64,000 nt of DNA from an uncultured delta proteobacterium (GTDB lineage Bacteria > Desulfobacterota > Zymogenia > Zymogenales > Zymogenaceae): positions 1 to 64,000 of the forward strand of contig CAWBYW010000011.1 of assembly GCA_963792965.1 (NCBI GenBank), read 5' to 3'. The translations under genes and the position numbers were made by a program. The notes under the pieces are model-generated. The model was not told the origin of the DNA and did not search any database. It saw only the letters and a program-made list of their open reading frames with translations. Of this stretch, positions 2,828-61,412 are shown piece after piece; positions within the stretch are counted from its first letter, which is position 1, and each line of letters begins with the position of its first letter.

Positions 2828-3291
2828 CTAATCCGGTCGTGACTTTTTTCCCATGTAGACGAGTGCGAGACGGGGCGAGACCTGTTCCCTGCGGAATTCG
2901 CGGTAGCCGAGCTTCGTGTATAGGGAGATGTTCTTTTCGCTCTTGTCCCCCGTGAAGAGCTCGAATCGGTCGGCATGAGGGAAGCTTTTTTCGATCGTGC
3001 GGACGAGCTGGGATCCAATGCCGCGGTTCTGGAAGTCCGGGTGGACGAAGAGCCGTCCGATCAGGCACGTGCCTTCCTTCACGTGCGCCCGGACGGAGCC
3101 GATGATGCGCCGTTATCGACGGCCTTGAGAAAGAGGCGGGCGGCGAACTCGGTACGCAGAGCCTCTACCGTCTCCGTCAGCGGGGGAATGTGATAATCGC
3201 CGTAGAGGGCCGCCTCGTTCTGGTAGCAGAGCTTCTGAAGATCCAGAATAGCCGGGGCATCGTCAATGGCGGCGGGCTCGATACGCACCAT
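2828..3291 (-). CDS. GNAT N-acetyltransferase, frameshifted near 3105
   Basis: N-half DAPAILDLQKLCYQNEA..IPPLTET joins C-half IGRLFVHPDFQNRGIGSQL..LYTKLGY in another frame. Confidence 0.85.
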
Positions 3292-58698: not shown

Positions 58699-58937
58699 AA
58701 AACCCCCGAGAGAAAGAACAAGAGCCGAGATAACTCTTTCTTTATTCTAATCGGATCGCATCGGCAAAGTCAATAGAGAAAGCTCTCGATTTTGGAACGA
58801 CGGGCAGTCGATGCGCGGGCGGTTTCAATACGGAGCCATGCCTCGAGGTCCATGCTCGTTTCCATGTGCGGCCGATTCGGCCGTGAGACGTGTTACGAAT
58901 TGAATATTCATAACACACCGATATCATTACATTTTTC

Positions 58938-58965
58938 TTGACTCGGCCCTTCTCTTTGGTATAAT
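58938..58965 (+). promoter_or_regulatory. sigma70 promoter of the peptide-rSAM operon
   Basis: TTGACT-16 nt-TATAAT with extended TGn. Confidence 0.75.
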
Positions 58966-59052
58966 TATATACAAGAGGTTTCTTCGGGGAGGATCGCCCC
59001 CCGGAGAGCTTACCGAACTAATCGTTTTGCCGTACCGGCAAAGGAGGAGGCC

Positions 59053-59115
59053 ATGAAGATCAAGAAGCTGGAAAAAACCGTCAAGGGACTGTGCAAGTGC
59101 GGTCGTTCCTGCTGA
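59053..59115 (+). CDS. 20-aa Cys-rich peptide MKIKKLEKTVKGLCKCGRSC, putative RiPP precursor
   Basis: AAGGAGGAGG RBS immediately upstream, own promoter, followed by a hairpin; first gene before the rSAM/SPASM enzyme; below the ORF-track cutoff. Confidence 0.75.
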   Translation: MKIKKLEKTVKGLCKCGRSC

Positions 59116-59137
59116 ACATTCGCACATCACAAACCAT

Positions 59138-59170
59138 AACGGGCCGAAATCGCTTCGGCCCGTTGCTTTT
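59138..59170 (+). terminator. Hairpin (terminator/attenuator) after the peptide gene
   Basis: AACGGGCCGAA-ATCGC-TTCGGCCCGTT then GCTTTT. Confidence 0.75.
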
Positions 59171-59232
59171 GGGCCGCCCGCCTCAGGTGGAGAGGGGTGG
59201 CCCGGCGTCATTCATTACGGGGAGGCCGGCCT

Positions 59233-59601
59233 TTGTCGATCGATAAGAAGACATTTTCGGACTACATTTGCAGGCCGTTTTGCGTCTTCTTCAAGGAAGG
59301 TCAGAAAGAAGAAATGGCCTGCGGCGCGGCCGTGACGGCCGCGCGGATAATAAGGTTGAGGAATATCCGGACGGGAGAGATCGTCTCGCCTGTCGGCGCA
59401 CAAGCCGCCACGGGAAAAGACGGTGACCTCCTCGACTCGCTGGTCTGCAGATATTGCCCCTTCGTTATCGATGGGTGCGACTTCCGTTCGCTAAAGCCCC
59501 CGCCTGATGCCGTTCCGTGTGGAGGATACATCCTGCTCGAGTTGCTCCTTTCGCGCGGCGTCATAACCCGCCAAGATATCGAGGACCTCGGCCGTGGGTG
59601 A
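59233..59601 (+). CDS. Seven-Cys hypothetical protein, translationally coupled to the rSAM gene
   Basis: TTG start with GGAGG RBS; CRPFC..C..CRYC..C..C; 8-nt overlap with the next gene. Confidence 0.75.
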   Translation: MSIDKKTFSDYICRPFCVFFKEGQKEEMACGAAVTAARIIRLRNIRTGEIVSPVGAQAATGKDGDLLDSLVCRYCPFVIDGCDFRSLKPPPDAVPCGGYILLELLLSRGVITRQDIEDLGRG

Positions 59602-60751
59602 TGCCGACTGGAAAAGGGGCTATCTCTTGCTATCCCGGAAAGCCGCCCTCAAACGGCTGGAGGAGCCCACGGTCTATATCACAGATCAGGACGAGCTCTA
59701 TGAGGTGAACGACGAGGCGTTTGCGTTCCTGTCCCGTTGCGACGGGACTATGCGTGGGGGCGACCTGACTGACGACGATGGATTTGTGACGTTCTGCCTT
59801 GCCGAGGGGATCCTCCTGACCCGTCCGAAACCCGCCGGGCGACGGGTCGTATTTGCGGCGTCGCCCGTGCCGTCTCTTCGCTACCTTGAGCTCCAGCTTA
59901 CCTCCCGCTGTAATCTTGCCTGCCTGCACTGCTATCAGGGTGATCGGACGGCGATTGACCTTCCGCTGGACACTGCCCTGAGGATTGCTCGAGAGTTTGA
60001 GGCAATGGCCGGGCTCCGACTCCTCATATCGGGCGGGGAGCCGTTGCTCTATCCCGGTCTCTTCGACTTCCTGGACGAGACGGAGGACCTCGCGTTGCGG
60101 AAGATCCTCATCACCAACGGGACGCTGATTAATGTGAGGAACGTCCGAAGACTCAAAGCGGACGAGATCCAGTTTTCCCTCGATGGATGGGAACGGGGAC
60201 ACGAACGGATCAGGGGGAGGGGAAGCTTTTCGAAGGTTATGCGGGGAATCGAGGCGGCGCTGAGCGCGGGAATCGCCGTCTCGGCGGCGACAATGGTCCA
60301 TCGGGGTAATCTCGATGAATTTGATCGAATGAACGCCTTCATCGAAAAGATCGGCGCCGTGGGATGGGGGATCGATCTTCCGTGCCCTACGGGGAGGTTT
60401 GATGCACACTCCGGGATTGTAGTATCACCGCAGATCGCGGGCCCCCTCATGCGGTACGCCTTCGGGGGGGGAAACCATGCCACGCCCGGCTTTGCCTGCG
60501 GGCACCATCTGATGACGGTGCTTCCGACGGGTGGCGGTGTAAAGTGTGGATTCTACGCCGACGATATCCTTGGGGACGCCGCCAAGTCGCTGGGCGGGTG
60601 CTGGCGCTCCATGAAGCATGTCCGGATCGATGAGCTCGAATGCCGTGGATGTCCTCATCTGGAAGAGTGCGGGGGCGGGTGCCGTTTCCGGGCTCCTGGA
60701 CCGCTGGCTCCCGATCCAGTTATGTGCGCGGCCTTTGGGGTGTATAGGTAG
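59594..60751 (+). CDS. Radical SAM/SPASM protein with N-terminal PqqD-like (RRE) domain
   Basis: ELYEVNDEAFAFLSRCDG (RRE-like), CNLACLHC, SGGEP, TNG, FSLDG..H; SPASM C-x15-C and CRGCPHLEECGGGC..C. Confidence 0.9.
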   Translation: MGDADWKRGYLLLSRKAALKRLEEPTVYITDQDELYEVNDEAFAFLSRCDGTMRGGDLTDDDGFVTFCLAEGILLTRPKPAGRRVVFAASPVPSLRYLELQLTSRCNLACLHCYQGDRTAIDLPLDTALRIAREFEAMAGLRLLISGGEPLLYPGLFDFLDETEDLALRKILITNGTLINVRNVRRLKADEIQFSLDGWERGHERIRGRGSFSKVMRGIEAALSAGIAVSAATMVHRGNLDEFDRMNAFIEKIGAVGWGIDLPCPTGRFDAHSGIVVSPQIAGPLMRYAFGGGNHATPGFACGHHLMTVLPTGGGVKCGFYADDILGDAAKSLGGCWRSMKHVRIDELECRGCPHLEECGGGCRFRAPGPLAPDPVMCAAFGVYR

Positions 60752-60889
60752 GCACCGAAACGTCGGGAGGGACGCTCTTGCCCTCGGGCGGTGGTCCGTC
60801 TCTCGGGCCTTGCCGGGCGTGGAGCGAGGGGGAAGAATAGAAGGCTTCAATGTGTGGGCCGGTCGGGGCCGCGCGATGAAGAGAAAAGT

Positions 60890-60923
60890 AAAACCCCCTT
60901 TCCGTAACGACGGAAAAGGGGGC
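60890..60923 (-). terminator. Terminator of the pilin gene
   Basis: CCCCCTTTCCGT-AACG-ACGGAAAAGGGGG flanked by an A-run (U-run on the minus strand). Confidence 0.7.
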
Positions 60924-60962
60924 TTGTTCGGGTATCCACTGCGCAGTGGCAGGTATCGTCAC

Positions 60963-61412
60963 CTAGTTCTCTACATCGTTGAAGGTATTGAGGATTTTAT
61001 TCCCGCCCATCCCCGGAAGCGAGGGATCGGAAACCACTTTCCACGTGTCCCTAAACGCATCCATATCGAGATTTGCGGAGCACGTCGCGAAGAAATTCTG
61101 AGGATTCGCCGGCGGATAGGGAACCAGCTCCCAGCTCTTGTAGAATTTCGCCTCGGCGGGCGGATCGATCCCGAGGATGCGATAGTCGGCGGTGTAGACG
61201 CTCTTGTCGGCATAATAGGACATTTCGTTGGTCCAGATGCCGCCCAAGAGCACCCGTGCCTCCGACTGCATGGCGCCGGCCTTGTAATGGACGTAGAGCG
61301 GGATCGCAAAGGACGCGAGGATCGCCAGGATCATGACGACGATCATCAACTCGATGAGGGTAAACCCTCTCCGTGATCTGATTATTGTCTTGATTTTATC
61401 GTTCGTATTCAT
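60963..61412 (-). CDS. pilA: Type IVa pilin
   Basis: Prepilin site RRG/FTLIELMIVV, P22. Confidence 0.9.
   Translation of the reverse strand: MNTNDKIKTIIRSRRGFTLIELMIVVMILAILASFAIPLYVHYKAGAMQSEARVLLGGIWTNEMSYYADKSVYTADYRILGIDPPAEAKFYKSWELVPYPPANPQNFFATCSANLDMDAFRDTWKVVSDPSLPGMGGNKILNTFNDVEN

Follow-up and report, generated by a model that had tools for sequence, protein, structure and literature searches.

The window analysed here is a stretch of 64,000 nucleotides from an uncultured delta proteobacterium (assembly GCA_963792965.1, contig CAWBYW010000011.1, positions 1 to 64,000), and it contains three small genes for a 20-residue peptide, a protein with seven invariant cysteines and a radical S-adenosylmethionine (SAM) enzyme with a SPASM domain (Table 1). 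Together these genes are a conserved, unnamed gene set of anaerobic bacteria and archaea, with carriers in Desulfobacterota, Nitrospirota and Archaeoglobi. The favoured reading, considered reasonably probable, is that they form a self-contained cassette for a ribosomally made mini-peptide. The peptide would dock on an RRE-like domain of the enzyme, its core would be changed by radical-SAM chemistry, likely with formation of cysteine thioethers, the seven-cysteine protein would serve as an obligatory partner, and the product would be a cofactor-like or metal-binding peptide that stays inside the cell.

The peptide gene and its link to the enzyme

Co-occurrence of peptide and enzyme was evaluated by phyletic profiling of 301 genomes sampled evenly from the phylum, in which the enzyme was called at E ≤ 1e-50 and the peptide was called by a degenerate pattern of 32 bits. 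The pattern is present in 34 of the 301 genomes and the enzyme in 35; both are found together in 34, and no genome has the peptide alone. The sole genome with only the enzyme (G233) is 86% complete, and its enzyme gene begins 9 bases from a contig end. Because the reversed pattern used as a control matches none of the 301 genomes, the peptide open reading frame (ORF) lies far above chance. Related genomes are non-independent samples; the cassette is nevertheless scattered over many families and missing from close relatives of its carriers, and the match between peptide and enzyme is therefore not one of simple inheritance.

The linkage was then resolved locus by locus. A scan of species-representative genomes yields 80 loci, comprising 44 orthologues of the enzyme (full-length with at least 37% identity, plus L025 at a contig end) and 36 other radical-SAM enzymes. 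Addition of seven earlier loci, the window and six relatives, brings the orthologue loci to 51. A 20-codon ORF of the same kind is present in all seven of the earlier loci and in 43 of the 51 overall (41 with the strict pattern, one that begins with GTG in L015 and one truncated at a contig end in L038), compared with 0 of the 36 loci of other radical-SAM enzymes. For four of the eight orthologue loci that lack it, the peptide is encoded elsewhere in the genome. A preliminary description of this region, made from the window's sequence, had proposed that a conserved short ORF rich in lysine and cysteine would accompany homologues of the enzyme, and this is what is seen.

Among 39 distinct nucleotide versions of the gene, the peptide residues M1, C14, C16 and C20 are invariant, and I3, K5, K15 and S19 are almost constant. 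The codons vary: cysteine is encoded by TGC and TGT in 26 and 13 versions at positions 14 and 16 and in 28 and 11 versions at position 20, and Ser19 is encoded by both TCN and AGY codons. Since the residues are fixed while the Cys and Ser codons vary, the peptide appears to be selected as a protein and not as an RNA. A strong Shine-Dalgarno sequence of the AGGAGG or GGAGGT type stands ahead of nearly all of the 42 listed peptide genes, and is weaker or absent in L006, L029, L037 and L055. The position of the peptide gene relative to the enzyme gene varies by lineage (upstream, downstream or divergent) with linkage retained, and the C-terminus of the peptide is likewise variable (C, CG, CA or CS). 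Judged by this conservation, the 20-residue ORF is a real gene, whose product can be tentatively divided into a leader of approximately residues 1-13 and a core of residues 14-20 (C-K-C-x-x-S-C). A search of the peptide against NCBIfam gives 0 matches at E ≤ 1.

The ORF is preceded by a promoter and followed by a terminator-like hairpin, ahead of the two larger genes, an attenuator-like layout that would also suit a regulatory leader peptide or a chance ORF of the operon's 5' region. That explanation is regarded as highly improbable and is rejected on the codon and synteny evidence. The amino acids are kept while the codons change, and the ORF is located downstream of the enzyme gene in Nitrospirota-type loci and in L007. 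It is also unlinked yet present in four genomes, duplicated in L016, G231 and G138, and never found without the enzyme in the profiled genomes.

The duplications take several forms. L016 holds two identical peptide genes (1758-1820 and 3201-3263), G231 has a tandem pair (C80:20614-20839) with different cores, C-K-C-K-S-S-C and C-K-C-H-S-S-C, and G138 has two peptide copies, on contigs C85 and C131, for one enzyme gene.

Architecture and affinities of the enzyme

The only Pfam domain detected in the enzyme is PF04055, which it matches with 77.6 bits against a cut-off of 29.5. Its CX3CX2C cysteines (C106, C110 and C113) are invariant in 18 aligned homologues, as are the cysteines C302, C318, C350, C353, C359, C363 and C378 of a SPASM domain at approximately residues 300-380, so that the cysteine-complete SPASM domain read earlier from the sequence holds in these homologues. 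On these motifs, CX3CX2C and the seven SPASM cysteines in the pattern C-x9-15-G-x4-C, gap, C-x2-C-x5-C-x3-C, gap, C, together with the PF04055 match, the enzyme is classed as a member of the radical SAM/SPASM superfamily. Its closest solved sequence is PqqE (E 7.1e-12). The AlphaFold2 model of the enzyme, with a pLDDT (predicted local distance difference test) value of 87, superimposes over residues ~90-385 on anSME with Z 24.1 and a root-mean-square deviation of 3.2 for 288 aligned residues, and matches other SPASM structures with Z 23.0 (CteB), 22.2 (SuiB), 22.0 (ChlB) and 21.9 (SkfB). The protein collection contains at least 1815 relatives, the best 120 of which are all unnamed or carry the generic name 'radical SAM protein'.

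The N-terminal ~90 residues form a separate strand-then-helix domain in the model, with several short strands followed by helices at residues 10-77. The preliminary description had called this N-terminus PqqD-like, a claim that stands in part. In its favour, the domain is included in the alignment with the N-terminal domain of SCIFF maturases, and hhalign against PqqD domains from related genomes gives a probability of 59% (E 9e-5) over 31 columns that cover a strand-helix motif. On the other side, the Pfam PqqD model (PF05402) does not match the window enzyme at E ≤ 1 and matches only 3 of 36 family members weakly (best E 0.019), and a profile of the domain finds nothing meaningful among PDB sequences (best E 1.4). 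Its assignment as an RRE, or peptide-docking domain, is thus supported no more than moderately, and weakly at the level of sequence.

The enzyme was next compared with the curated NCBIfam models, for which the best 25 matches were listed, the weakest at 48.8 bits. The highest scores are those of AhbD (TIGR04545; 94.6 bits, cut-off 500) and NirJ2 (82.3 bits). WgkB, NirJ1, MftC, StsB and ScmE follow at 72-77 bits, in matches to the core only: NirJ1 scores 75.5 bits, MftC (TIGR03962) 75.2 (cut-off 265), StsB (NF045574) 73.8 (cut-off 625) and ScmE 71.7 (cut-off 400). Lower still are NirJ at 69.2 bits (cut-off 515), AhbC at 68.9 (cut-off 650), ScmF at 58.0 (cut-off 400), PqqE (TIGR02109) at 54.3 (cut-off 381), GeoRSP at 53.7 (cut-off 400) and SbtM at 48.8 (cut-off 350). 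The SCIFF maturase model TIGR03974 (cut-off 425 bits), which true SCIFF maturases match with 487-781 bits, is not among the 25 best, nor is TIGR04463, the CrpC family. Membership in the SCIFF, ScmE/F, GeoRSP, SbtM, MftC, PqqE, StsB or AhbD families is accordingly rejected, the enzyme falling below every cut-off. The earlier view that the system matches no named family therefore holds for the SCIFF, SynChlorMet (ScmE/ScmF), GeoRSP and selenobiotic (SbtM) models.

These scores bear on an alternative in which the enzyme acts on a non-peptide substrate, a tetrapyrrole or small molecule, with the peptide and the seven-cysteine protein as carriers, scaffolds or acceptors, for example with the product attached to the peptide cysteines. 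AhbD and NirJ2 head the curated matches. In addition, hhalign matches the enzyme to AhbD-like proteins from its own phylum (E 9.5e-36; 275 columns at 31% identity) more strongly than to SCIFF maturases, although this match covers residues 101-376 only, the core and SPASM portions. The AhbD, NirJ and AhbC enzymes thus provide both the nearest curated scores and the best profile match in this part of the protein. The alternative is nevertheless held to be unlikely. Cut-offs of 500 to 650 bits are missed by a wide margin, and across 18 family members the tetrapyrrole and peptide-linked families tie, with best E values of 6e-29 for AhbD, 2.4e-28 for ACGX, 6.4e-27 for ScmE, 6.9e-27 for NirJ2, 2.9e-24 for WgkB and 1.8e-23 for StsB. 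The AhbD model gives higher scores for the window genome's own ScmE- and ScmF-like enzymes (152 and 166 bits) than for this enzyme, which indicates that likeness to AhbD is a trait of this SPASM half and not a sign of tetrapyrrole chemistry. Furthermore, the first ~100 residues of the enzyme are additional, with no counterpart in the AhbD/NirJ/AhbC enzymes, which show no strict co-occurrence with a peptide gene, and the genome already has distinct genes for AhbC (669.8 bits, exceeding the cut-off) and for an AhbD-like enzyme (457.8 bits).

Tree placement also separates the family from these enzymes. In a tree of 48 rows (23 family members, 8 AhbD-like enzymes, 5 SCIFF maturases and 12 annotated paralogues from the window's genome), the enzyme family is a single clade on a long stem, with a support of 93 in the Shimodaira-Hasegawa-like approximate likelihood-ratio test (SH-aLRT). 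The clade lies outside both the AhbC/AhbD group and the group of anSME and SCIFF maturases, and shares an unresolved part of the tree with enzymes of AhbC/D, Scm-like, PqqE-like and metalloenzyme-maturase type. The preliminary description had named grouping with AhbC/D, NirJ or anSME as an argument against a peptide-modifying enzyme; no such grouping is observed, even though the core profile is nearer to AhbD-like enzymes than to SCIFF maturases. The profile match to SCIFF maturases extends over 349 columns from the N-terminal domain to the end of the protein (probability 98.9%, E 1.5e-17, 22% identity). Taken with the model, the enzyme appears to be built like the peptide maturases.

Some enzyme genes of the family deviate from the intact form. 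G283 has a second, partial copy (C81:1341-2255) with one in-frame TGA, for which pseudogene formation, an error of sequencing or codon recoding could each account. The close relatives L003 (G009) and L005 (G007) have their enzyme gene broken into two or three frames, and the Cys-rich gene of G009 is disrupted too, possibly by frameshifts or assembly errors. Separately, the window genome (G000) contains a second set of peptide-maturation type at C18:105685-108447 (L106, L142 and L144), in which two PqqD-family ORFs are followed by an ScmE-like gene (214.7 bits) and an ScmF-like gene (358.3 bits), both under the 400-bit cut-offs of their models.

The seven-cysteine partner, the locus and its neighbours

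The third gene adjoins the enzyme gene in 38 of the 51 loci. Among the 13 loci without an adjoining partner gene, ten genomes were tested (all but those of L038, L047 and L049), and the partner is encoded elsewhere in 10 of 10. Its fusion to the enzyme N-terminus is seen in L040, L043, L067 and P0227 and probably in L019, natural fusion forms having 501-510 residues, and the same arrangement is suggested by long open frames in five additional genomes from the phylum. The partner is a third constant part of the system.

The true start of the window's partner gene is most likely the TTG at 59233 and not the GTG at 59197, and the exact 122-residue product of the TTG start is present in the protein collection. 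The invariant cysteines, C13, C17, C30, C72, C75, C82 and C96, are arranged in two half-sites, C-x3-C...C and C-x2-C-x6-C...C-G-G, and the form found in some lineages is a short one with a single unit, 55-90 residues long. Searches of Pfam and NCBIfam give 0 matches at E ≤ 1, and the 61 relatives found are all unnamed or labelled 'hypothetical protein', none with a Pfam domain. Among 1.84 billion representatives the family accounts for 258 clusters (E ≤ 0.001), and its neighbours in the ESM Atlas are unnamed clusters only. An AlphaFold2 model of the partner is all helical (pLDDT 81.6). This fold has no match to a PDB structure at E ≤ 0.001 with Foldseek (best 2.3), and VIA-align against 48,161 chains gives a best Z of 4.0, which amounts to no solved-fold match.

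Prediction of a complex between partner and enzyme gives a score of 0.59, compared with 0.01 for the best of three controls. The mark applied to such scores is reached by 116 of 157 solved complexes and by 2 of 215 mismatched pairs, and scores at or below 0.60 include 18 of the 157 solved complexes and both of the mismatched pairs that pass. The runs share at least 35% of contacts, with a pLDDT of at least 54 for the partner. The prediction is thus weakly suggestive of binding between the two proteins.

Two fusions to other proteins are found among metagenome proteins. In P0325 (233 residues) the partner is fused to a cupin with a His-rich tail. In P0264 (474 residues) the seven-cysteine domain stands C-terminal on a protein resembling a receiver-PAS-histidine kinase, which reflects either a genuine fusion to a sensor or a gene call that has read through.

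The partner's cysteine content raises the alternative that it is itself the substrate, cross-linked in the manner of CrpA by CrpC, with the small peptide as an accessory factor. In the CrpA/CrpB/CrpC system of Methanococcus voltae, according to PMC13692751, the CrpC enzyme (TIGR04463) acts on a 28.8-kDa protein with ten repeats, and its authors also discuss a possible metal link. The system there resembles the present one in its anaerobe host and in having a SPASM radical-SAM enzyme with an RRE, a putative one in the present enzyme, beside Cys-rich partners, and it provides a case in which such an enzyme installs thioethers on a neighbouring Cys-rich protein (PMC13692751). In the window the Cys-rich gene is moreover translationally coupled to the enzyme gene. 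Even so, this alternative is rated as a little less probable than a non-peptide substrate. The partner's cysteines are in single, fixed motifs of CxxC and Cx3C type that resemble metal ligands, with no repeated Cys-acceptor motif, and its fusions to the enzyme N-terminus and to the cupin would be unusual for a substrate. It shares no leader-like N-terminus with the peptide, the enzyme does not have CrpC among its 25 best NCBIfam matches, and the separate 20-mer, found with the enzyme in 34 of 35 genomes, is the likelier substrate.

The remaining features of the locus are collected in Table 1. The extended -10 promoter, ribosome-binding site, tiny ORF, 11-bp hairpin and two overlapping genes of the preliminary description are all present where it had placed them. 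The gene overlap measures 8 nt. Promoter-like sites number 3 in the region 58700-60950, compared with 0.7 expected from shuffles. The 80-nt leader upstream of the peptide gene folds with a free energy of -34.1 kcal/mol (z -2.8), and an Rfam search of positions 58850-59300 finds no family near its gathering score. The hairpin 3' of the peptide gene (59138-59164) has a stem of 11-12 pairs followed by GCTTTT and a free energy of -24.1 kcal/mol (z -3.5), with 1 of 200 shuffles equally stable. A comparably stable hairpin (z < -2) is located 3' of 33 of the 42 peptide genes from related loci.

Table 1. Features of the three-gene cassette in the window, listed by position
Feature	Position	Strand	Basis
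Putative sigma-70-type promoter with extended -10 (TTGACT, 16 nt, TG-n-TATAAT)	58938..58965	+	Consensus agreement at 11/12 positions
Putative 5' untranslated region with two hairpins and ribosome-binding site	58972..59052	+	Folding
Ribosome-binding site AAGGAGGAGG	59041-59050	+	Last base 2 nt ahead of the peptide ATG
Precursor peptide gene, 20 aa, MKIKKLEKTVKGLCKCGRSC	59053..59115	+	ORF listing and conservation
GC-rich hairpin and short T run, terminator- or attenuator-like, 3' of the peptide gene	59138..59171	+	Folding
Seven-cysteine partner gene, 122 aa from TTG	59233..59601	+	ORF listing; alternative GTG start 59197
Radical-SAM/SPASM enzyme gene, 385 aa	59594..60751	+	ORF listing, Pfam, alignment
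Enzyme N-terminal RRE-like domain, ~aa 1-90	59594-59863	+	Profile alignment, model

A further hairpin of 6 bp (TTGCCG-TAC-CGGCAA, 59026-59044) lies directly 5' of the ribosome-binding site of the peptide gene. It is kept in close relatives with changed stem letters (GCCCG..CGGGC in L002 and L005, GCCC..GGGC in L003 and L014) and could be an element that protects the mRNA end or controls translation.

Upstream, the cassette is flanked by divergent UDP-sugar genes. On its 3' side is a convergent pilin-like gene (60963-61412) with the prepilin-type N-terminus GFTLIELMIV, which also adjoins the cassette in L002 and L005, and a strong terminator-like hairpin of 12 pairs with a T run is located 3' of that gene (60894-60921, minus strand). 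The pilin, UDP-sugar and TPR flanking genes were considered as parts of the system and rejected, as they are common to the close relatives L002 and L005 only and not to the wider family.

Neighbouring genes were clustered using ORFs of at least 70 residues from all orthologue loci but L003 and L005 (49 of 51). Wide sharing is confined to the enzyme and the Cys-rich protein, and there is no conserved protease or transporter among the clustered ORFs, so that the absence of an adjacent protease or exporter described earlier for the window extends to these loci. A cupin of 110 residues that has a His-rich tail and conserves an H...GHEE...H set adjoins the cassette in nine loci; it is present in 18 of the 35 cassette genomes compared with 8 of the 266 other genomes. 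The P0325 fusion ties this cupin to the system in those lineages that have it. In 6 of 10 Nitrospirota-type genomes the unlinked seven-cysteine gene is directly 3' of cutA, with histidinol dehydrogenase near (L153-L156, L159 and L160, at ~1150-2200 in each; CutA1 is confirmed by Pfam in the four tested and was judged by eye in two). The cupin and cutA links are hints towards metal handling.

Proposed mechanism, related systems and significance

The proposed substrate, chemistry, partner role and product use build on the genes, conservation, linkage, fusions and enzyme architecture observed above. The 20-residue peptide would be translated from its own strong ribosome-binding site, and its basic N-terminus (M-K-I-K-K-V-x-K) would dock on the RRE-like N-terminal domain of the enzyme. 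Using a SAM-derived radical and two auxiliary SPASM clusters, the enzyme would then modify the C-terminal heptapeptide C-K-C-x-x-S-C. Given the three invariant cysteines and the SPASM domain, the first guess for this chemistry is one or more intramolecular Cys thioether links of the sactionine or ranthionine type. The seven-cysteine protein would bind the enzyme as an obligatory partner and probably has a metal or iron-sulfur centre to hold the peptide cysteines or pass electrons; more speculatively, a peptide cysteine could complete a three-Cys half-site by serving as the fourth ligand. Because the cassette lacks an accompanying protease or exporter and its core is nearly constant between phyla, the product is most likely retained inside the cell, as a peptide that binds metal or acts like a cofactor. 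A near-invariant core would fit such a product better than an antibiotic.

Several observations weigh against this reading, in addition to the non-independence of related genomes, the weak PqqD matches and the AhbD-like core described above. Four of the 51 orthologue genomes (G045-G048) have no peptide gene by the strict or a looser pattern, in searches that did not include a selenocysteine (TGA) version. The His-tailed cupin was not found in the window's own genome, and both metal-related links, cupin and cutA, are lineage-restricted. The core offers just four non-Cys residues as thioether acceptors, and some members have one more residue after the last Cys; the chemistry is therefore not readable from the sequence, and the few acceptors together with the AhbD/MftC-like core leave room for chemistry of another kind.

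The nearest described systems are SCIFF and the ranthipeptides, the peptide-derived cofactors, StsA/StsB and CrpA/CrpC. The SCIFF system (precursor CteA/ScfA, maturase CteB/ScfB; TIGR03973 and TIGR03974) has the same enzyme layout of N-terminal docking domain (a putative one here), radical-SAM core and seven-Cys SPASM domain. Comparison with the SCIFF genes in L118-L121 shows a basic M-K-(x)-I-K start in both precursors, with G/x ahead of the first Cys. SCIFF precursors are also highly conserved and are not known to be accompanied by an exporter or protease, as in the cassette described here. The two systems differ in the low identity and separate tree placement of their maturases and in the SCIFF precursor of ~45 residues with at least six Cys, compared with 20 residues and three Cys here. 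They differ further in the obligatory seven-cysteine partner, which has no SCIFF counterpart, and in their hosts, the SCIFF loci used being from Clostridia.

The sactipeptide system StsA/StsB, as presented in PMC10288494, combines a CxCxC...GxGxG core with an RRE-bearing SPASM enzyme from MftC-like sequence space. The closely spaced C-x-C core is common to both systems and StsB is among the sub-threshold matches of the enzyme, but the peptide described here has no Gly acceptor series after its cysteines. The precursor table of that work, in one supplementary text of 601,285 characters (PMC10288494), contains no member of the present peptide family.

Pyrroloquinoline quinone (PQQ; PqqA/PqqD/PqqE) and mycofactocin (MftA/MftB/MftC) are likewise made from a very short, near-invariant precursor by a SPASM enzyme with RRE-type recognition, which is putative here, and without export genes. 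In these precursors the defining residues are Glu and Tyr in PqqA and a C-terminal Val-Tyr in MftA, which ends in Gly-Val-Tyr. Neither motif is present in the core described here, the putative recognition domain is fused to the enzyme and not a separate PqqD or MftB, and no tailoring enzymes comparable to PqqB/C or MftD/E/F are linked. This comparison gives rise to another explanation, in which the peptide is the substrate but no thioether is formed, and an MftC- or PqqE-like oxidative decarboxylation, a C-C or C-N bond or another C-terminal change leads to a redox cofactor. A near-invariant core across phyla with no exporter or protease follows the logic of PQQ and mycofactocin. The enzyme is placed in the tree near AhbC/D, Scm-like and PqqE-like types and not with SCIFF and anSME, and its sub-threshold matches include MftC and PqqE, the latter also its closest solved sequence. 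The core is, however, dominated by three invariant cysteines, where known cofactor precursors use Glu/Tyr or Val-Tyr. The variable C-terminus disfavours chemistry on the terminal carboxylate, and no conserved dehydrogenase or other cofactor-using enzyme is found nearby in the clustered loci. Such a route is judged improbable, if less so than either of the alternatives that assign the enzyme a substrate other than the peptide.

The thioether-forming cassette therefore remains the preferred reading. Within the resources covered, none of the family models describes the peptide, partner or enzyme family, and a search of full-text literature that included the core motif as text finds no paper on this system, although subscription journals and some supplements may hold one. 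The set is distinguished by a 20-residue precursor found across domains and by a new seven-cysteine partner, fused or free.

Roughly one species-level genome in nine of those sampled from the phylum carries the cassette (35 of 301). Since gene callers miss the peptide gene, the system is invisible in current annotations. With only three small genes in all, it is directly testable by co-expression and mass spectrometry, and a seven-cysteine family that has no known fold and occurs fused to the enzyme or to a cupin provides a clear handle for biochemistry.

Radical-SAM enzymes that act on ribosomal peptides yield antibiotics as well as cofactors such as PQQ and mycofactocin. The marks seen here are of the cofactor type, with a core almost unchanged between Desulfobacterota and Archaeoglobus, neither export nor protease genes in company, and links to small proteins of metal-binding type. 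A more far-reaching proposal, tentative and rather doubtful at present, is that the cassette makes a new peptide-derived cofactor or metal-handling prosthetic peptide inside strict anaerobes, both bacterial and archaeal, from what would be the shortest known precursor at 20 residues. The partner would then be a new metal or iron-sulfur fold that presents the three peptide cysteines to the enzyme, and metal handling further downstream would involve the His-tailed cupin and CutA as partners.

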